NCBI GenBank assembly: GCA_045837725.1
Contig: JBEWZL010000213.1
Location: 1 to 64,000 of the forward strand
Origin: Vermamoeba vermiformis
Lineage: Eukaryota
Direction: 5' to 3'
DNA length: 64,000 nt
A program made the position numbers and the translations under genes. Positions within the stretch are counted from its first letter, which is position 1; every line of letters starts with the position of its first letter. Of the stretch, positions 25,031 through 43,053 are shown one piece after another. The notes under the pieces are model-generated. The model was not told the origin of the DNA. It did not search any database and saw only the letters and a program-made list of their open reading frames with translations.

Positions 25031-26942
25031 CTAAGTAGTACCATCGTAGTCAAAGGCGGAGTCAGCTTCGGCCACGCGCCCTAATAACATTAGTTAGATA
25101 CGATCGGATATTTTCTTGAATTCTACATCGTCCGACTTACAAGTACGACCCCAAGTGAAGATTTCAGCAGCAGTAGCAGGGAAGTTAATCGTAATGCCGT
25201 CCTTGGTCACGAAGTCGTTGGCGCGCAAACCGTCAAAGTTGCCGTAGAATCCTTTCAACTTGCCAGCGAGACCACTGCCAGCACCAACACCGATCATAGT
25301 GAAGCCTTCTTGGAGTCTGTACTGCAACGACAAACTGTTCTTGGCTTGAATTTCAAAGTTCATGGTATCAGTCTCGCGCAAAATGATGAGTTCGCCACCG
25401 CCAATAGAGTACGGGAATTGAGCAGAGCTAAGATCAAGAGTGTTTGAATCCACACGGAGAGTGACAGTGTTGCCAGAGGAGTAGAGACGCACTGAGTGGC
25501 CGTAGCCTTTCACTGCAGCAGCGGTGGTGCACGTGGCGTCCATGCCAGCCTTGCACTTCTCGAAGCGAGCTTGAACTTCGACAGCGTCAGAGTCAGTGCT
25601 TTGAGCAATAGTGAACTCGCCAAGGGCATTGAATTCGAACCTAATTTGGCGATGTTAGCGATTGGCTACGAGGGGTTGACGTGTCAAAAGTGGTGTCAAG
25701 AGAGATACTTACGGGGCGCCATCGAGGGTTTGGAAGTGAGGGTCTCCGTAAGTAAATCCGATGGGCAACGGTTTGCAGCCAGGAAGCACTAAGCCGCAGC
25801 TATCGTCAATTTCACCATCAGAAGGAGGAGTATAGTCGGTAGGTCGCATGAAGGGGCAAGCGAAGTAAAGGTCTTGACAAGTCAAGTCGCAGTTCACGTT
25901 GATCTGGAACGGATCTCCACCAGTACATTCGAGGAAAATGTAACGGCACAACATGCGTTGATAAGCTTGGTAACAGGTGTCAGCTTGATCGAGCGTAGTA
26001 GTATTATCCATGAGTGCAGCTTGAATAGTAAAGTTGACGTAGAAGAAGTAAGAAGTGGTCAAACTTTGGAGCAAGGCGTTGACTTGTGGATTTGGTCCGG
26101 TAGGAGTGGTATAAGTAACATAAGCAGAGCAAGCTCCGAGGTCAAATGAAGGGAAAGAGCAAGTAGGAAGAGGAGCAGAGAGCATTTTGGTGCAAGCAGT
26201 AGTGCCATCCGGAGCGTAGTGACGAGTGTCTGTGCAGATGCCACCACTGCGAACAATAAGTTAGTAAACTAAATCTTGATCAGTTAAATCATACGTGTAG
26301 AAGGCAGCGCATTTAGTAGTAAAGTCAATGCATTGGGATCTGCATGGAGGAATGTAGCGGACCGATCCGTCAGGTCCATTGAAATCGCAGCCTCTGAAGA
26401 TAATAGAGCAAATCAAATTCTTGAATGAGGCACTGCAGTTAGGGTCGTCTATATTCGAAAGAGATCGTATTAATTCACTGAAAATTTGGAGCCGATCGTT
26501 AAAACTGAATTACCATTAAAAGTTTGGTTAAACAGCTCGCTGAAGTAAAGTTGTTCCACTGAAGCATCGGTAGTCGAGGCGTAGTTAACGTTGGTGCAAT
26601 AGACGAGGCCAGTAGGAACTTTACACTCGGTTTGCTCGATCGAACGCTTTTTGGCTTCGCGATCGCTGATCTCCAAAGCGAGTTCGTAGATTTGGGCGTA
26701 TTTAGCTACATGAGTGATCAGAATCCATATTTTTTGAAGCGCAATAGATTGACTTACCGTTATGCACGTCGTCTTTTTCGACATTTTTGAAGTCGTCTAC
26801 TGAGATACGAGCCGAATCTAAAATGAAATAATAGTTAATTAAATATCGGTGCGTAAAATCTTGGTGCGGAGTTCTTGAACTTACAAACGCTAGACGAGAT
26901 CGCAAGTAAAGCGATCAATGATAATACCAATGTAGCTTTCAT
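25031..26942 (-). CDS. Secreted protein with two Frizzled-like cysteine-rich domains and a von Willebrand factor type D (VWD) domain
   Basis: Signal peptide MKATLVLSLIALLAISSS. CRD-like C..F..LIC...F..C..PCRSQC..F...C and C...Y...LC.YIF.EC...C..TC..LYF.C. VWD motifs YGDPHFQTLDG..FEF...GEF and GFYGNFDG...NDF. Confidence 0.75.
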
Positions 26943-27486: not shown

Positions 27487-29856
27487 TCACCTCCATTCCT
27501 TTATTGCTCTCTGTTCTTGGATGCAATTCCTGGCATGTTTGTTATTCTTAATGTGATCTAAGAACAGGCCGAGTTGCTTCAGCTCCGTTGGAAGAGTAAA
27601 AAGTCCGGATGCTTGATCCACCACCTTAGCGTACTGTTCTCTGTAGTCTGCGCAATTAATAAGGTCAATAAGAGTATGTGGCGCATAAAAGACGTATTAA
27701 CCTTGATTTCTAGGAGGGTCACTCTCTTCACCAGCCGAATAACTTAAGACGCGATCTACTCGGCCAACACCAACAATCGAGCTTTTTTCTACGAGCATCA
27801 CTTTGCCACTGTAATTCTTTTCGAATACACTTGGTTTGTAGGTCTCAATGTCGTAGTGGATCAGTGGTAGGAGGATCGCTTTGGCTTTTCTCAGCGTTGG
27901 TTTTGGTGGTCGAACATAGTCTTTTCCTTTTTCGGCTTGCAACTTAACGTGTCTTTCTCTCGCCTTCGCGACTTCAATTTTGTATTCTTTTTTCAAGTTC
28001 TTTCGAGTAATGCCGTTATGGTAGTTGTTCAAGTTAGGTTTCACCGGCATGTCTTTGTACTCAAGTTTGAATTTTCTCTCGCCTTTGTAGCGATTTTTGC
28101 CGTCTTCGGGGAAGATCCACCACAAGATACACGGAATGCGTGCTGTTCCGTAGAAGACAGTGTACGTTTGATGTTGAATAAATCGATCAGGTCTCATCAC
28201 GAAAATGCTGGCTCGAAAGGCGTAAGTGCAGTTTACGCTCTGCGTTTGCCTATGATTCACGACATAACTGAACCTACGCGGTACCTCTCGCGTGGACATA
28301 CGTCTTATATTAAATCCGACGACACTGCCTGAGGGTGAGAACATTAGATCATACGTCGTTTGTCAAGTATAATTAAACGAACAAACCTGGTTTCGCCTCT
28401 CTCACGTCTTCATGATATTCCTCAATAGTACTAACCTCGGATATTTTGGTATTTGGATGAATGGCGACTAAAATGCCCGGTCTAAGCACACCGCCTATTC
28501 AAAACGTGTCAATATTATTAATCACGATGAATTTTTCATTTGACGTACTTATCACACGTCCGACTGCCACGGTACCAATGCCGCCGATCCTGTACGTGCG
28601 ACGTAGTTGAATTTTCAAAGGCACTTCGCACAGTTTTTGGAACGCTCCTTCGTCGAAGTTTGTGCGCAATTGATCTTCGAGAATCAGTTGCATTAACGGC
28701 GGTCCACCGAATGACGTTAGTTCAGGTGCAATATTGAGGCTTGTCTTAACATTCACCGGAACAATCTTGTAGCACATGCCGACGGTCTTATCGAGAAGAG
28801 TGGCTATTTTGGCTTTGGCTTGATTGAACGCTGAAAAGTGACACGTGTCAGTTTCGAAGCTCGTTGCTCATTGGTCAAAGTTGGCACGCATGTAAACACG
28901 TGTCATATCAAAGATAATTATTGTTTGCGGGAGCACTTACGATGACTCCATAAAGACTCTGTGGGTGGATAGTTATGCAAGTCAACGGCCACAATGACGT
29001 TGCGTGCACTCATCATGAAGCACGAGCCAAAGACGATCTCTTTGATCTCTTCCAAGTGCTCGTCAATCTCTGTTGGATCCACGACGAACAACAATAAATC
29101 TGCCTATAGGATTGATAAGGGGTTCAGTAAATTGTGATGGGTTGGCCTGTTTAACTTACAGCAACAGAATGTATCCACAATTCTTTTCTACGAGGTCTCT
29201 CATTCGGAGGTACTATCATAGTAAGTCGCCGGTTTTTGCCGCCATTAGCGACTTGACAGGTGTGCGCCATTGTATGATGCTGAAATCTCACGCGTTTTGT
29301 TGGCCCATAAGCGACGGTGCAAGCTAACAAGGCGGCGCCTAAACGATGCAAAATAATAAAATTAATTTCATAATAAATAAATTATTTAAATCTTACGAGG
29401 AGCACGTGTAGATCCTCTTACTTGCTGCATGTCCGGATCAAGGGCCACAATATCTTAAAATAAACTGTTAATTAATTAAATCGTATATTTTGCTCGAATT
29501 ACCATGTTCAGTAGGTAAGGATACGACTAACACGCGCAAATTATCGCCGCAAAGTCGGATCTTCTTTTTGTGCTCTAGAACATACTGAGCCAGCGCATGA
29601 ATTCGTTTATTAACTCGCACTAAGTCAAATAGTTGGATTCGATTCAGATTATCAAATATTTCGAGCAGGATCTATTTTTAAATTAATAAATTAAAATAAC
29701 AATAAATCCAAGGCACCTTGAAATGCTATTATGGCGAACATATTGCATTTATCCACTCGAATATCATTAATGGAATTTAAACTAATATTTTAAGGGAGCT
29801 TGAGTCTTTACCTCGTTTGGCAGTTCAATTAGCCACGAGAGCCGAGAGGTCTCCAT
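27487..29856 (-). CDS. F-box fused to a degenerate EF-1alpha-like protein, copy 1
   Basis: Exons 1-2 LIELPNEILLEIFDNL..LVRVNKRIHALA form an F-box. Later exons: [72 protein letters not shown] (EF1A domains I-III). Confidence 0.75.
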
Positions 29857-30004
29857 ACTGCAAATAAACAAATATTGAATTAAAAATGTTAGCTCATCGA
29901 GTCTTGTACGGGTAAACAAAAATACAATTTATTATTTACCAGCATTTTGGCAGTCTCTTCTCTGCTATTGGTCGTGCAGGAAAAACGGTGCACCATAATA
30001 CCTA

Positions 30005-32162
30005 TCAAGGCAACTGTGTGAGGCACCGCTTAGCGTGTTTGTTATTCTTAACGTGATCTAAGAAGAGATCAAGCAATAGTTGTTCTTCTGGCAGCGAGAA
30101 AAGTAACGCAGCGTTGTTGATAACTTCTGTAGGCTTGTTGTAATTGAGATCTTGATAGCTTGTGATTAGTATATATGATGTATGATTCAGCGGCATCGTT
30201 CAGAAACTTACGAGGCAATCTTATAGCCCGATCCACTTGTCCGACACCAACAATCGAGCCTTTTTCTACGAGCATCACTTTGCCACTGTAGTTCTTTTCA
30301 AATACGCTTGGTTTGTAGGTCTCAATGTCGTACTGGTGCAGTGGTAGAAGTATCGCTTTGGCTTTTTTGAACGTTGGTTTCGGTGGTCGAACATAGCCAC
30401 TCGCATTCTCTGCCACTAATTTGGAAACTTCAAGTTTGAACTGTTGCATTTCTCTTTTGTAAGTCTCTTCATCCATCTCACGTTTCTTAGGCTTTTGAGG
30501 TAATGATACGCCATGGCGTTCAAGTTTGAATTTTCTCTCGTGTTTGTCGTGATTTTTGCCGTCTTCGGGGAAGATCCACCACAAGATACACCGAATGCGT
30601 GCTGTACCGTAGAAGACAGTGTACACATGATGGAGCATGAATCGGTCAGACTTTTTCACGGCAATACTGGCTCGAAAAGCCAAAGTGACGTTCACTTCAG
30701 CATTGACAGCGCACAACATGTAGGGAATTCGCTGTGACATCTGGTACTTACCGATGCCTCTAGCATTAACGCCTATTACATCATCTACAATACCGCGATT
30801 AGACTTTCTATGTACATTAAGCCATACTTAACTTGGTCTCGCTTCGCGAGCGGGCCAACGATTAATTTCAATGCTCGAAACTGTGCCTGCTGTTCCTGTC
30901 GGAAAAAGACAAACGTCGTCCTTCGGCTTAAGTACTCCACCTGTACGGTACTGGTTGGTAACGACTATCTATCATCATGACGTCAATCAGATCTGCTATG
31001 ACTTACAAAGGACGACACGTGTCATTTTTTAGCGTTCGATCAAGCCCGGACCAAAATTGCTGAGTTGCTCGACGATGCAGTGGGTCAATGTTACCAGATT
31101 ATTCCAGTGGACTCTGACAGAGATTGCAATATCAGAATGATAACCACCTTCAAGTGGTTCAAGGGGCCCCCGCTGAAACAACTGCTGATCGAAGATCAAC
31201 TTCGCACAAACTTTGACGAGACAGCCTATAAAAAGTTGTGTGAAGAACCAGTCAAAGTTCAAATCACTGACTGTCATAGGATTGGCGGCATTGGTGCTGT
31301 GTCAATTTAAAGTGTCACTTTTGACGCATCGGCAAAATCAACGTACCTTGTTCGGAGGGGTCATGGTACAAGTCAACGGCCACAATGACATTGCGTGCAC
31401 TCATCATGAAGCACGAGCCAAAGACGATCTCTTTGATCTCTTCCGAGTGCTCGTCAATCTCTTTCGGATCCACGACGAACAACAATAAATCTGCCTAAGA
31501 TCAAGTTACTATTAGCGTTATATCTACTAACGACGTCAGAATTAACGCACAGCAACGGAAGTGAGCCATAATAACTGTCGGTAGTGCATGTCAGTATCAG
31601 CTCGGATCAGATTAATTTCTCGTGATTTGCCGTCCGTAGAGTGCATGTAGTTGTGTACCACGGTACGGTCTTTGATTTGGTCGCGCGACAAGTACGGATC
31701 TGCCATAAATCGCTGGACTACTCGATACACTGCTGCTAAACAGAAGTAATTATTATGATCGAAGGTAAATTATAATACTATACTATAATTAGAGCTTACA
31801 AGAGGTTTTGATGGAATTAAATCCCAACACCAAAACACGCAGCTTGTCCCCGCAAAGTCGGATCTTCTTTTTGTGCTCTAGAATATATTGGGCGAGCGAA
31901 CATAAATGTTTGTTAACGCGCGTTAGTATTGTTAGCTGAAGTCTATCCAATTGATCGAATATTTCCAGCAAGATCTGTCAGAAGAAAATTTAAAAAATGA
32001 AAAAAATCAAAATTGTAATCGAAAAATATTTGAATTCCATAGAATACCGACTGTAATTAATATTTATAACTTAATTTTGCGAAAGATATCAAACGAAAAA
32101 AAGATCCCGACTTTTACCTCGTTTGGTAGTTCAGCAAGCCATGAGAACTGCTGTTGATCCAT
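30005..32162 (-). pseudogene. F-box fused to a degenerate EF-1alpha-like protein, copy 2; one exon (~31019-31298) is inverted, so the gene is disrupted as assembled
   Basis: Homologous exon by exon to copy 1 (LAELPNEILLEIFD; HKKKIRLCGD; YDIETYKPSVFEKNYSGKVMLVEK; LFLDHVKNNKHA). The exon FDQARTKIA..HRIGGIGAV reads on the + strand. Confidence 0.75.
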
Positions 32163-32334: not shown

Positions 32335-33578
32335 ATGAGTGATAATGCAAATCAAGAACCTATAAAGGTGTACTTACAAAAAGACAGATTTTTCGTGTGG
32401 GATCCAAGCGGTAAGCGAGTTATTTTCAACAATTACGATGAATTAGAGCTTATGTATAGTATTAAATACTATTATGATTTTTTTGCTGATTTGTGTTGCA
32501 GATGTGCTTCGGTTAAGAAAAAAGCATCACATTATTGGCAGCCTCGTTGGTTCTATTGCCGATAATTTTACACAAAATCAACTTCAAGGTCTACCAATGC
32601 TATTAAACGATTTTGAGACCGCTATACTCGTGAAAAATGGTAAATAATATTCGAAAAAAATCGTAAAATTCAACTGAGGCTTATTTTGCCGTAAATATGC
32701 CTCTAATAATTATATTGTAGGGTTTTGCATAATATTAGACGGAAATACACCGTATCCAGTTCCAACAGCAGATGACGTTACAAAGTTTAAAGAAGAACGA
32801 GAGGCAGACTTTCAGAGACAAGATGAAGATGCGAGAATTAAAAAGAAATTAGGAGAATTACAGTACAAAAATATAAAGAACGTCAAGCGAGCTAAAAATA
32901 AGAAAACTAATAATAGCGACAGCCAAGAGATCAAAGCAGATCAGCTCGATAATAATTCGAATACTCAAAATAATGTAAATACTAGCGAAGATAATCCCGG
33001 TGTAAATAATAGCGGCGAAATTAGCGAAAAAAATAATCAACAATCGAAAAAATCGAAAAATAAGCCGAAAGAACGACAGAACGGAGTGATTACCCTATTT
33101 GCGGAAGATCATTGGCTCAAACGAGACATCAAAACGATAGATATATCAAATATATTAGAAAAAGTGTATAAGGACCCGAAGTACTTAATTTTTGAAGATT
33201 TATGGAAACGAGGATTTTTTGTTACTGGTGGATCCAAGTTTGGAGGTGATTTTCTGGCTTATCCTGGTACGTTAAATCCAATTATAATATAATAAGCTTT
33301 TTATTATTCTTATTTTGACTAGTCAAGTAAAAAGTCCGCAATTTTTTCTGGATCCGCTACTTTTTGGCACTACGTAACCGTTCTATTTAGGCGATCCATT
33401 TCGATACCACGCGCATTATATCATTCGTGTCATTGGTTGGACAGACCTATTAAGTCCGCTTGATTTAGTAGCGTTTGGTCGTTTGGCCATGAGCGTCAAC
33501 AAGTCACCTGTCATTGCCAGCATGGATACAAACTCAAGTCACATAACTTATAACACTTTCCAGTGGAGTGGTAAATAA
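32335..33578 (+). CDS. TSEN34: tRNA-splicing endonuclease catalytic subunit Sen34
   Basis: LRKKHHIIGSLVGS..QN..GLPMLL, then [41 protein letters not shown].SVNK. Confidence 0.92.
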
Positions 33579-36781: not shown

Positions 36782-39700
36782 TTACTGGTTGTGTTCAATC
36801 TTAGTGAAGGTCCAAGCACCGTGATCTTCCAACTTCAAGAAGTACTGATGGTACTTCATCAACTGCATGCGGTGCGAGACAGTGATGAGTGTGGTGCCGA
36901 GTTCTTGCGATCTGCGGTACAAATGTTCTTCAATGTCAGTCGACACGGCTGAAGTGCATTCGTCCAAAATAGCAAACTTGGGCCTAAAAACAGATTGCCA
37001 TCGTTAGTATTTCCAAATAAGGTAAATTTTAACTTCAAAAAATTTGCCGGATGCAGACGTACTTTTTGTAGTAGATTCTAGCCATGCTGAGACGTTGCTT
37101 CTCACCGCCAGACAAAATGTCGACCCATTCCTTGACAGCGTCCCAACCTTCTCTCGTGCACAAATAAGCCAAGTCAACTTCTTCCATAATCTTGAGCAGA
37201 TCCGCGTCCGTAACACCCTTGCTCTTCATGTCTTCAATAGTGTCAGGGTAGATAATTTGTTCGCGCAATGAACCAATAGGGAAGTAAGGTCGTTGAGGCA
37301 CAAACATAATGTCGCGAATGGAAGGCTTGGTAATAGTACCGGATCTCAAGGGCCACAAGCGATTCAACACGCGGAAGATAGAGCTCTTGCCAGAACCTTT
37401 ATAAATATTAATATATTGGTCTTCGTATATTTATTGATAGCACGTACCGTTAGGACCAGTAATCAACAAGTTCATGCCGGGTCGGATCTCAAAGCTGAGA
37501 TCTTTGACGAGCATTAACTCTTCGTCTGGGGACTCAATGTCGACGTGATCGAAGGAGATATAGTCCGCAGACTCGATGTAGTTGCCTGTATTCTTAACGA
37601 GCTGTTGTGTACGCGATGAAGTGTCGCCTCTAAATCCGAATCAGGTTAGATCCGTTACACGAACTTTGATAAATCTCCACAACCAAAACAATCGTGCCAA
37701 ATATTACTAAAGTAGATATATATGCGATATAGCACTTACTTAAAGTTCTTGGATAAGAAGCCGTCGTGATCCTTTTGCAAAGCCTTGAGCAGCTCGAGCA
37801 ATTCGGCAACACGAGTAGTGTACTATATAAATACAATATGGTTATTAAATATATATTAGTATATGCCTCCTATTGATGCTTACGCCTGCCAAAGCGGTAA
37901 TTCGTTTGTACAACAAGACGACTTGGCCGGTAGCTTGCGCCAAATTGACAAGAATTTGAGAGTTTCGGATGTAAATGCCTATGAACAGTACAATATGGTT
38001 AATATAGACTATTGCGACTATATTTTAAGCGTTATACGTACCGGTAATAGCAGCGGTCTCGTCGGATGTGTCTTCCTTGTTGCCGTCTTGGTTCGGATTG
38101 AATTTCGAGGAAAGAATGCCCATAGCCAGCACTGCGTAGCCAATCATAGTAGCGCCGTACTTGACGAGCCATGAATCGAATACTAATCAATAGAGTTAGC
38201 GACGAAAAAATAAAAGTTTCAGGACTGAAGAATTGAAGCGTCGTAGTAATCTTGTAGCAAATAAGAGTAAATAAATGAAATGCTACGAGCGCTGTTACAA
38301 ATTATTTTGGGCCAAATTTCTTCGGAAAATGTTTCGCTGAATTTTTTGTATGCGGTAAAGTACTTACTGCCTACGATGGCTTGCTTGAAGAACAAGCTGT
38401 TGCAGTGCTTATATAACGCATCGAAGCTCTTGTTGACCTAATGAAACAATTAGTACGAAGAACAGATCCGAAATTGAATTCTTGAGATCTTACCAAGTTC
38501 TTTTCAATTCCCCAGCCTCTATAAAAGGCGATTTCTTCAGCGTGCATTAACAAACGGCTATGATTGAAGCGGAAATCTCCTTCGAGCTTTTGTTGCTTAG
38601 CAGTCATCTTGGCGAAGTTTGGCAACAATTTACGCATGATGAATCCGGAAAGTACGTAATAGAAGTACATCAATATAGGACCGCCATAGCCAATAGACTT
38701 GACTAAACGACGAGTAAACAAGACAATATCGACAATAGGCTTGAAAGTTGATGAATACAACTCGCTCGTGGCTGTACTGAACTTTTCTACGTCTTGTGTA
38801 ATACGCTGATCACTAATAATATTATAATATTAATATATATACATAATAATAAATCTAGAGTATTATTTTGGGTCATACTCAAAAAAAATTATAAAATTAA
38901 GTTTTGTGCGCGATCTCGATTTTGGATCTAAAAATCTTGGTACGTACATGTTATCAATAGCATCGGAGCTCATGCTCTTATAGAAGGTCAGTGCGTCCAT
39001 ATAGCGCGTGTGCAATTGATAGCTCAATCTCTTTCTGAAGCGAATGGCCAAGGTCGAAGTGAAGTACTTCAACAAGCTGTTCACGACTGAGGCGGGAATG
39101 GCCACGAGACCTAACTTGATCACACCCTGTATATAATGATATAAATACACGTGGTCAATAGTTAATCGTTGTAAGGTCGTGTTTTGTAACGAGATCCGGA
39201 ATGACATGCGGTGACATTTAGAACTCTGTAAGCTCTTAAAGTACTTACGCGAATGAACTTTTGGAAATTCTGTTGGACTAAACCTGAAGCAGTTCCACCT
39301 ATAATATTATAGCACTTAGTATTTGCAAATCACAAGCTGAAAAATCATCGAGCCAAATCCGGATCTGGATCAGCTTTACAATACTCGATTGAAATCGCTC
39401 AAATTTTATATATTAAATAGGAAATAATGAATATTGTTGGAATTTATCCTTAGTCTTATAAATTGAGACTTACCAATGACTTCAGCGACCTTGATCGACA
39501 AGATTGTTCTTAACAACAAGCAGGCAGTCAAGAAACATAGCTGCATGAACTCAATGGACTTGATTGAGGGCATTACTATTCTCAATAAGGACCATAATCG
39601 TGCTGCAAACTTTTTGTCCACGGATACTCTTGGTCGCTAGATGTCGAGTCAATAAGGAATCAAAAAATATTACGAGCATTGGGACGTAATTATTGTAATA

Positions 39701-41026: not shown

Positions 41027-43053
41027 TTACAGTATTGTTTCGGTCAACGACTTTAAAGGGTCTTCAGCAAGCCAAGGGATCACAGTTAAAGCTCCATGGC
41101 AAACTTTTCGCACACGTTCAAGTTGCTTGACTTCGCTTTCCATTCGTTTAGCCAAAACAGGGTCAGTGGTGTTTGTCAGTAACAAAGACTTGTTTACAAT
41201 CCAGCCATATGGAGATATACCAGCTCTTTTCAGATCTTCTTGCAGTGTTTCTGCTTCAGTAACTGGTGTATTTTCAGGGTGTGTGACGATAAGAATTTTT
41301 GTGTATTGTGAATCTTGCAGTCGTAACAGAGGTGTTGTTATTCGGCCATGAAATTCGGTGTTGCCTGCAAATGATCTTAAAACATCTCGGTGATAAGAAC
41401 CTGTGGCATCCAATAATAATAATGTGTGTCCAGTCGGTGCAGTGTCCATGACCACAAAGCTGTTCTTCGCTTCTGAGACAACACGCGAAAATGCATGAAA
41501 CACAGCAACTTCTTCAGTGCAAGGAGACTGTAAATCTTCTTTTAGAAACAATTTTCCTTCTTCATCAAGCTTGTCACCTTTCGAAGCAATAACTTTGTCT
41601 GTATAATTTTGCGTCTCCTGCTTGGGATCGATTCGGCTGACTGTTAAATTAATTGGCAAGTCTTTTTGCTGTTGCAATGCAATGTTCAAGTGTGCGGCAG
41701 GATCTGTTGTGGTTAAGTGAACTCTACTTTGACTTGATTGTGCTAATTTGATCGCAATGGCTGCTGCAATTATAGTCTTTCCAACACCTCCTTTGCCCAT
41801 GATCATAATCAAGCCACTCTTTTGATTTGAAGATAACAGTGCTGATATCAAATTGTCAAATGATAAGTCTTGGCTGACCAGAGCATTGTTTCGAATTTCT
41901 TCAACATTGATGTTGTTCTTTAATTGAGGGCCAGGAACAGCAAGCAATTCTTTAAGTGCATCAATACCAACAAAATTAATTGGCTTCAATGGAATTCTTA
42001 GCTGAGGTAAGCTTGCCAAAGACTGTGGAATTGCATCCAATGATTTTTTGGCTGACTCTTCAATTGCCACTGCAACTTTATCCGATGGATCTGCTGCTTT
42101 AAATACTCCATTAATGACTAATTGTTGGTTTTGTAATGAAAGCTCATTCAATTCTTGCTGTGTTCGTTCTGCTTCTTTCAGTGCACTAAATTCTGGTCTG
42201 CTAACAATCACAATTGTGCATTGTTTGCTGTCGGTAAGAGCGTCAAGTGCTTTATGGAACTTGTTTCGATGCATTGTCAAGCCAGAGTGTGGGCCTATAC
42301 AAGAAGCACCTCTTTGATTAGTATCCAAAAAACTACTCCAGGCCATGGGTAGTTTCAAAAGTCGTAGAGTGTGACCAGTTGGAGCAGTGTCAAAGATAAT
42401 ATGATCGTAACTGGATTTGATTTGTTCGTTGGCCAAGAGCTCTGCAAATTCATCAAATGTTGCTACCTCAGTTGTGCAAGCTCCTGATAACTGTTCTCGA
42501 ATTTGAGGCACTAGTTCACTTTTTGCTTGTTCATACGGTTCTAGCACTCTACGGCGATATGATTCTGCAGCACTGGTCGGATCCAAATTAACGGCGTATA
42601 AGTTTGATATTTGGGTGATAGTTGAGGGCTTGAAAATAGTCTTTGAGAGCGGGACCGAGAATATTTCGTCCAAATTACTCGCTGGATCCTATTATCGAAG
42701 CGAAATTAATAATAAAATTATTGTTTTTTTTTGTTTTCTTGACACTTACCGTACTAATTAGAAGTACTTTCTTTTTAAGAGTAGATGCGAGCACGAGCGA
42801 GGTTGAACAAGAAATAGACGTCTTTCCCACGCCACCTTTTCCGGTGAAGAAGATAAATTTTGTAATTGGCTGCGTGATATCAAAATTCGAAGCTCCTGGA
42901 AGCCCTAAAAGCTCTAACGATGATATAAAAATTAGGAAAAATACTAATAAAATATTTGGCGTTACCTCCAGAAGCAGAGGATAGTCGCCTATGTGGCACG
43001 GGCAAGCCAAAAACCCGCGCTCTTTTAGCAATCGAAATTATTCCTTTGAGCAT
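41027..43053 (-). CDS. arsA: Bacterial-type arsenite-activated ATPase with duplicated nucleotide-binding domains, a probable mitochondrial presequence and two introns (42914-42965, 42689-42749)
   Basis: Two GKGGVGKT P-loops, STDPA/TTDPA and two DTAPTGHT motifs. Metalloid Cys motifs SGACTTE, ASCIGP and SPCTEE are present. Exon 1 is MLKGIISIAKRARVFGLPVPHRRLSSASG. Confidence 0.93.

Follow-up and report, generated by a model that had tools for sequence, protein, structure and literature searches.

A single exon in inverted orientation between five-nucleotide inverted repeats in one of two tandem F-box/eEF1A-like genes of Vermamoeba vermiformis

The window analysed here is a stretch of 64,000 nucleotides (nt) from contig JBEWZL010000213.1 (positions 1 to 64,000, forward strand) of the Vermamoeba vermiformis assembly GCA_045837725.1. 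This 64-kb sequence is gap-free, contains 0 N, and is eukaryotic in character, with approximately 40% G+C and short GT-AG introns. Positions 27487-32162 hold two tandem paralogues on the minus strand, each coding for an F-box joined to a degenerate eEF1A-like protein, and a tblastn search with the copy-1 protein found no third copy of the gene in the window. In copy 2, one exon (exon 6', the homologue of exon 6 of copy 1) reads on the plus strand, while all of the other exons read on the minus strand. The exon structures of the two genes are as follows.

27487..29856, minus strand: copy 1, intact, nine exons with canonical borders throughout, coding for 596 amino acids (aa) without interruption
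29856-29812, 29671-29503, 29453-29397, 29338-29160, 29103-28941, minus strand: exons 1-5 of copy 1
28830-28549, 28494-28387, 28328-27702, 27647-27487, minus strand: exons 6-9 of copy 1
30005..32162, minus strand: copy 2, an F-box/eEF1A-like gene in which, exon 6' excepted, all exons are on the minus strand with GT-AG borders
32162-32118, 31974-31800, 31735-31551, 31494-31347, 30940-30833, 30784-30212, 30126-30005, minus strand: the seven minus-strand exons of copy 2

Exon 6 of copy 1 (28830-28549, 282 nt) runs from phase 1 to phase 1, and directly 5' of it on the minus strand stand the palindrome TGACACGTGTCA (28850-28839) and then the acceptor cttttcag. Its homologue in copy 2 occupies 31033-31298 on the plus strand, where it codes for FDQARTKIA...HRIGGIGA(V) and is preceded by ttttttag (31025-31032). 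When the copy-1 protein was compared with the window by tblastn, 12 of the 13 matching segments lay on the minus strand; the remaining one, at 31035-31307, lay on the plus strand with 55% identity over 91 aa (E 1e-26). At the nucleotide level, a blastn comparison of the region with the window matched 31179-31304 to 28690-28565 (74%) and 31014-31046 to 28849-28817 (91%), both in reverse orientation, while every other match between the two copies was collinear. An earlier note on this sequence had proposed that the exon is inverted between two short half-sites, and both searches confirm the inversion; the positions that it gave for the half-sites, for the acceptor and for a donor stranded on the minus strand (gtaagt, 31001-31006) are all correct. 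The rest of copy 2 is intact: its seven minus-strand exons, joined without exon 6', form an open frame of 1356 nt that codes for 451 aa from ATG to stop. The segment and its borders consist of the following elements.

31001..31018, minus strand: stranded end of exon 6 and donor region, reading GTGTCGTCCTTT followed directly by GTAAGT
31014..31018, plus strand: left inverted-repeat arm, GACAC, 5 nt
31019..31298, plus strand: inverted segment, made up of half a palindrome (GTGTCA, 31019-24), a pyrimidine tract with its AG acceptor (31025-32) and, from 31033 to 31298, the main part of exon 6'
31299..31303, plus strand: right inverted-repeat arm, GTGTC, 5 nt; read on the minus strand it is ttGACAC and closes the 5' part of intron 5
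31304..31346, minus strand: 5' part of copy-2 intron 5, left in place, with donor gtacgt (31346-31341)

Both 5-nt arms are perfect inverted repeats and lie flush with the inverted segment. The arms extend no further, as c at 31013 does not pair with a at 31304. By our own arithmetic, a flush 5-nt inverted repeat at given ends would be expected by chance about once in 1000. The left arm and the adjoining 31019-31024 together make up the palindrome as it now stands, CGACACGTGTCA, which has one mismatch to TGACACGTGTCA. Two potential donors are found in the stranded region: the consensus donor GTAAGT (31006-31001, minus strand; acttac on the plus strand) is out of frame, and the weak donor GTCATA (31002-30997, minus strand) is in frame, at a phase-1 position conserved in the gene family.

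Other uses of exon 6' in its present orientation were considered and rejected. As part of a plus-strand gene, or as a trans-spliced exon, its frame meets a TAA at 31308-31310 with no in-frame donor earlier, and upstream on that strand there is only the antisense of copy 2. If the antisense exon were instead included in the minus-strand mRNA, entry at the acceptor-like site gacacag would lead to a stop within 8 codons.

The family to which both genes belong combines an F-box with EF-Tu domain 2 (GTP_EFTU_D2), as seen in the relatives P0002 (618 aa), a Vermamoeba vermiformis transcript in EukProt, and P0154 (614 aa). For P0002 the Pfam scores are 35.7 bits for GTP_EFTU_D2 (cut-off 30.3) and 24.1 bits for the F-box (cut-off 20.5). 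The window copies are approximately 55% identical to P0002; submitted as single exons rather than as spliced products, their pieces stay below the Pfam cut-offs, with 18.1 bits for the F-box and no domain-2 match. The closest solved structure is that of archaeal EF-1alpha (3wy9, E 1.7e-25). In the alignment to this structure, DAPG (the DxxG motif) corresponds to RPPN and NKMD (the NKxD motif) to AVDL in P0002, and copy 1 has VPPN and AVDL at the same positions. Because the DxxG and NKxD positions are not kept, the family looks like one of pseudo-GTPases, in which GTP hydrolysis is unlikely, and the protein may serve as a ubiquitin-ligase adaptor built on an elongation-factor fold. Exon 6 covers the last part of the G-like domain, the linker and the strands with which domain 2 opens, and the Pfam domain-2 match in the relatives begins at the IGGIGTV stretch. 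Among 1.84 billion representatives, the family comprises 15 proteins at E up to 1e-30. It is lineage-restricted, with members in the V. vermiformis transcriptome and on a few metagenome contigs (L001, L002).

The exon-6 region is in line with its surroundings in copy 1, in metagenome contig L002 (four of four segments collinear) and in the transcript-derived proteins P0001, P0002 and P0154. Because all of these are collinear, the inverted state of copy 2 is, on this comparison of relatives, the derived one. The flipped exon shows purifying selection: against exon 6 of copy 1 its dN/dS is 0.24 at a dS of 1.57, within the range of the other exons (0.17-0.57), and its frame runs through 102 codons without a stop. 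Since nothing in copy 2 has decayed, the flip would have to be very recent for this gene pair, or else absent from the organism. The pair itself is not young, as dS between the copies ranges from 0.6 to above 2 in most exons, the mark of old paralogues. Between the two copies there are also patches of recent gene conversion, of which one tract lies in exon 5.

31369..31497, minus strand: conversion tract, 129 nt of exon 5, 96.9% identical to copy-1 28978-29106

This tract ends 66 nt from the right junction of the inversion. Elsewhere in the two genes, copy-1 exon 3 (29453-29397, 57 nt, DIVALDPDMQQVRGSTRAPR) is without a counterpart in copy 2, whose exons 2 and 4 instead have 6 additional nt each.

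We reversed the flip in silico with a script, which rebuilds CTTTAAATTGACACGTGTCATTTTTTAG joined directly to CGTTCGATCA. The left join is restored exactly: the un-flipped junction, ...aaattGACACGTGTCAttttttag followed by CGTTCGAT, is the palindrome and acceptor of copy 1, and intron 5 is of normal size. This reproduces the arrangement that the earlier note had predicted for the flipped-back gene. The other end of the rebuilt exon reads ...GGTGCTGTGTCGTCCTTT, then GTAAGTCATA, and here the note's description holds only in part. Measured from the ATTGGT anchor, the exon end is indeed 10 nt shorter than in copy 1 (15 nt against 25 nt), yet upstream copy 2 is longer by 6 nt, and the whole rebuilt exon with the gtaagt donor comes to 278 nt against 282 nt. 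Nor is the statement that the rebuilt exon is out of frame robust. It is true of GTAAGT combined with the conserved acceptor, which gives the 278-nt exon and a broken frame, but GTCATA, 4 nt downstream of GTAAGT, gives a 282-nt exon as in copy 1 and a full open reading frame (ORF) of 545 aa; this site is the phase-1 serine-codon position common to copy 1 and L002. A third solution, also in frame, pairs GTAAGT with an acceptor 10 nt upstream.

The right-hand end of the segment departs from the family in a further respect. In the family alignment, GIG[TA]V is followed by xxG[RHLF][VIL] in 12 of the 12 other sequences covering that column, a count in which P0001 and P0154 fall into the same 90% cluster. 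In copy 2, GAV is followed by SSF at this point, and the invariant glycine is absent. Homology is lost immediately after GAV, where the repeat arm lies, and is regained at (V)SGVLKPKDD. Because the family glycine is missing exactly at the junction, the join appears, on this alignment, not to be clean, and flipping the segment back would probably not yield a normal family member; some 15-19 nt coding for xxG[RHLF]V would have been lost or replaced at the 3' join of the exon. The flank of the left junction has an inverted match of 21 nt at 81% (9 nt exact) between 31008-31028 and 30903-30923 in exon 7', 85 nt apart, the exact part of which is as follows.

30915..30923, plus strand: GTCGTCCTT, within exon 7', the exact inverted counterpart of AAGGACGAC in the junction flank (31008-31016), weak support

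The match is a hint that the flank may be templated filler copied from exon 7' during break repair. We give this little weight, because an exact match of 9 nt or more within 300 nt also turns up for 4.1% of 4000 random 12-mers.

The palindrome that supplies one of the arms was described in the earlier note as recurrent, and the counts bear this out. The window contains TGACACGTGTCA at seven exact sites and three with one mismatch, a total of 10 where 0.06 are expected, and none of 100 shuffles reaches 10.

2224, 17359, 18105, 28839, 31013, 46664, 47271, 48402, 55992, 60161: palindrome sites in the window

Its core ACACGTGT occurs 11 times against 0.8 expected. The palindrome has the E-box core CACGTG, and extra TGACAC or GTGTCA half-sites often adjoin it. 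It sits in intron 5 of both old paralogues, the half-site TTGACACG is present in the same intron of L002, and in P0017, which comes from a close relative and is 94% identical to exon 6 of copy 1, a translated ORF reads TDTRH against TDTCH, which corresponds to one change inside the 12-mer. No tie of the window's palindromes to splice acceptors was found (5 of the 10 sites, compared with 34% of 5000 random positions). It resembles a regulatory motif of the E-box type and probably serves as a site for a transcription factor; searching the literature in full text for the 12-mer returned nothing relevant, only two papers on Ebola virus, judged by title. Because the palindrome offers both strands of the half-site, any GTGTC or GACAC nearby can pair with it, and no special fragile site is needed to explain why one arm is a half-site. 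A bolder idea is that the palindrome is a genome-wide hotspot of short inversions, each half providing a ready inverted microhomology, and that recurrent exon-sized flips remodel multigene families, perhaps with both orientations segregating and with in-frame exon-skipped products in use. We regard this as distinctly improbable.

The explanation that we favour, as a probable one held with some reserve, is that copy 2 carries a real and evolutionarily young DNA inversion of approximately 285 bp, a one-off event that disables or shortens the gene. We infer from the assembled sequence that the inverted arrangement is present in the organism's DNA. The inverted piece would have comprised exon 6 and the 14 nt of intron 5 that precede it (half of TGACACGTGTCA, the pyrimidine tract and the AG); the 5-nt inverted microhomology used would be that between the GACAC of the intronic palindrome and a GTGTC close to the exon's 3' end. 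Two template switches in replication, or microhomology-mediated break repair, could have produced it. In the minus-strand pre-mRNA the exon would now be antisense. Skipping the symmetric exon 6 (phase 1 to 1) keeps the frame, and splicing is predicted to run in frame from the donor at 31346 to the acceptor at 30941 across a 406-nt intron, which would give a product 94 aa shorter and without the start of domain II; the alternative outcome would be aberrant splicing. On this reading, copy 2 has most likely become a pseudogene only recently. Among the explanations put forward in the earlier note, a real inversion that inactivated the paralogue fits best, given the derived state, the flush repeats and the glycine missing at the junction, although its suggestion that the palindrome seeded the event or is a fragile site rests on one case.

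Several observations weigh against a real, young inversion. Of the 22 sequencing runs listed as matching the stretch, the four that match well (X1 to X4, with word shares of 0.94, 0.94, 0.90 and 0.64) come from one sample, possibly the source of the assembly, and their library descriptions are blank; the small word shares in runs from other organisms and metagenomes carry no weight here. The published precedent for microinversions is 17-33 nt, about ten times shorter than the approximately 285 nt seen here. An orthologue of copy 2 was not found in the protein, metagenome and prokaryote searches. Among longer proteins, exon 6' matched one of 19 candidates (P0001, at 58%), and neither of two candidates of near length scored; the blanks of both protein searches are weak, as P0002 and P0017 were missed although they share long words with the query. 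A metagenome scan based on an exon-8 alignment yielded 189 pattern matches and two loci, both only approximately 50% identical, and a degenerate pattern for EDQLRTNFDE had 0 matches in the prokaryote genome collection. The loss at the junction is deduced from family conservation. Finally, the un-flipped model with GTCATA has a complete 545-aa ORF in a gene that is otherwise perfect, and an artefactual flip of a working gene would look alike.

That last point leads to the possibility that the flip was made in vitro, by a polymerase that switched template twice at GACAC and GTGTC during amplification or library preparation (for example, multiple displacement amplification, MDA), in which case the true copy 2 would be collinear and working. 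The features of MDA chimeras as given in an excerpt of PMC1855051 (inverted join, short complementarity and adjacent deletion) match the junctions, and an artefact would agree with the otherwise intact copy 2, with the purifying selection on exon 6' and with the common sample of the well-matching runs. However, one chimera makes one junction, whereas the two junctions here restore the segment exactly in place, and a consensus assembly would need both of them in most molecules. A simple flip of a normal gene is also insufficient, as the un-flipped exon still lacks the glycine of 12 of 12 relatives and has an out-of-frame consensus donor 4 nt before the in-frame one. None of the runs matching the stretch is labelled as RNA. 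The same species label is attached to three raw RNA runs, and the size of the RNA runs under it (approximately 4 Gb) suggests that biomass was not limiting. Misassembly of two exact in-place junctions is hard to envisage, because 5-nt repeats should create no ambiguity in the assembly graph. On balance we consider an in vitro origin unlikely, while taking it seriously. We give little credence to an older inversion in which the exon-skipped copy 2 (451 aa) is a functional product kept by selection. The frame is kept by the symmetric exon, the ORF is uninterrupted from ATG to stop with canonical splice sites, and the remaining exons have dN/dS of 0.17-0.57, but an exon long unused should decay, and this one has 102 codons without a stop and a dN/dS of 0.24 that is not raised. 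Skipping would, moreover, remove the first strands of EF-Tu domain 2 and require the 406-nt intron, whereas the 13 other introns of the two genes measure 48-143 nt, the longest of them about a third of that length.

It is very improbable, in our view, that no in-place inversion occurred and that exon 6 was replaced by an inverted copy from an unlinked paralogue. The family does have several diverged members in related organisms (the 15 proteins at E up to 1e-30), and conversion patches link the two copies; yet the window holds only two copies, the 55-58% aa identity of exon 6' to copy 1, P0001 and P0002 is akin to that of the rest of copy 2 (47-60%), and the segment brings its own acceptor and half palindrome, which fit the stranded intron half exactly. 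The earlier note had also raised the possibility of a reversible on/off segment, in which the exon flips between the half-sites, so that the product of copy 2 alternates between full length and a broken or shortened form. Such a switch would account for inverted repeats flush with the segment, for a palindrome re-formed at one end whichever the orientation, and for an exon 6' with an open frame, a dN/dS of 0.24 and an in-frame un-flipped model. Against it, the arms are only 5 nt, and a Pfam search of the 17 ORFs between 20 and 42 kb that reach 110 aa, in which short exons were not scanned, found no recombinase, integrase or transposase family; the matches among those ORFs were to VWD, tRNA_int_endo, ABC_tran, ABC_membrane_2 and ArsA_ATPase. 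The un-flipped exon is without the xxG[RHLF]V motif and its invariant glycine, and in it a consensus donor that is out of frame competes with the in-frame one. There is no second known case, and the nine other palindromes of the window have no paralogue by which their orientation could be judged. Regulated inversion of an exon in a eukaryotic nuclear gene is, to our knowledge, without precedent, and we consider the switch highly improbable.

If the young inversion is real, it would be a clean and datable example in which one exon has been inverted while the gene has not yet decayed in any other way, and it would show that a paralogue can be knocked out, or shortened in frame, by inverted microhomology of a few bases at such a motif. 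Apart from that, it is an ordinary structural mutation of a single lineage-specific gene and adds one more example to a known class. Its importance would rise only with further palindrome-bounded inversions, or with both orientations in reads.

The genes on either side of the two paralogues are of ordinary eukaryotic kinds:

25097-25654, minus strand: von Willebrand type D protein
32678-33289, plus strand: tRNA-splicing endonuclease domain
37038-39306, minus strand: ABC transporter with ABC_membrane_2
41030-42688, minus strand: ArsA/GET3-type ATPase (E 8e-76)

Among known systems, the bacterial invertons (Hin/hix, FimB/E) likewise place a segment between inverted repeats, and the orientation of that segment determines whether a gene product is made. 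The exon described here differs from them in its eukaryotic host, in its 5-nt arms, in the lack of a recombinase match among 17 nearby ORFs and in a flipped-back state that is probably no normal gene. Chimeras formed by phi29 in MDA are closer in the details of the joins. The excerpt of PMC1855051 (Lasken and Stockwell 2007) reports that more than 85% of them are inverted sequences with intervening deletions and that more than 70% of the junctions start at 2-21 nt of complementarity, and the present case likewise has an inverted join, short complementarity (the 5-nt arms) and, at the right join, a likely small adjacent deletion. These are, however, single joins in individual molecules, whereas the two joins here restore the flanks exactly and are present in a consensus assembly.

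The nearest counterpart is the class of microinversions described between human and chimpanzee. In the part of PMC8755829 on which we draw, each of the 59 definite cases has inverted repeats at its borders, 3-75 nt in length and in about half of the cases 4-8 nt, and the routes proposed are template switching and microhomology-mediated break-induced replication. Short template-switch events (PMC5453318) are grouped with them here. As in those cases, the segment in copy 2 is the reverse complement in place, with perfect short inverted repeats flush with its ends, and its 5-nt arms fall within the 4-8 nt class. The microinversions reported in that part of the article are 17-33 nt long and most are exact, whereas the segment here is approximately 285 nt and one join has seemingly lost or replaced some 15-19 nt. 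It also differs from the microinversions described there in that one of its arms is half of an over-represented 12-nt palindrome.

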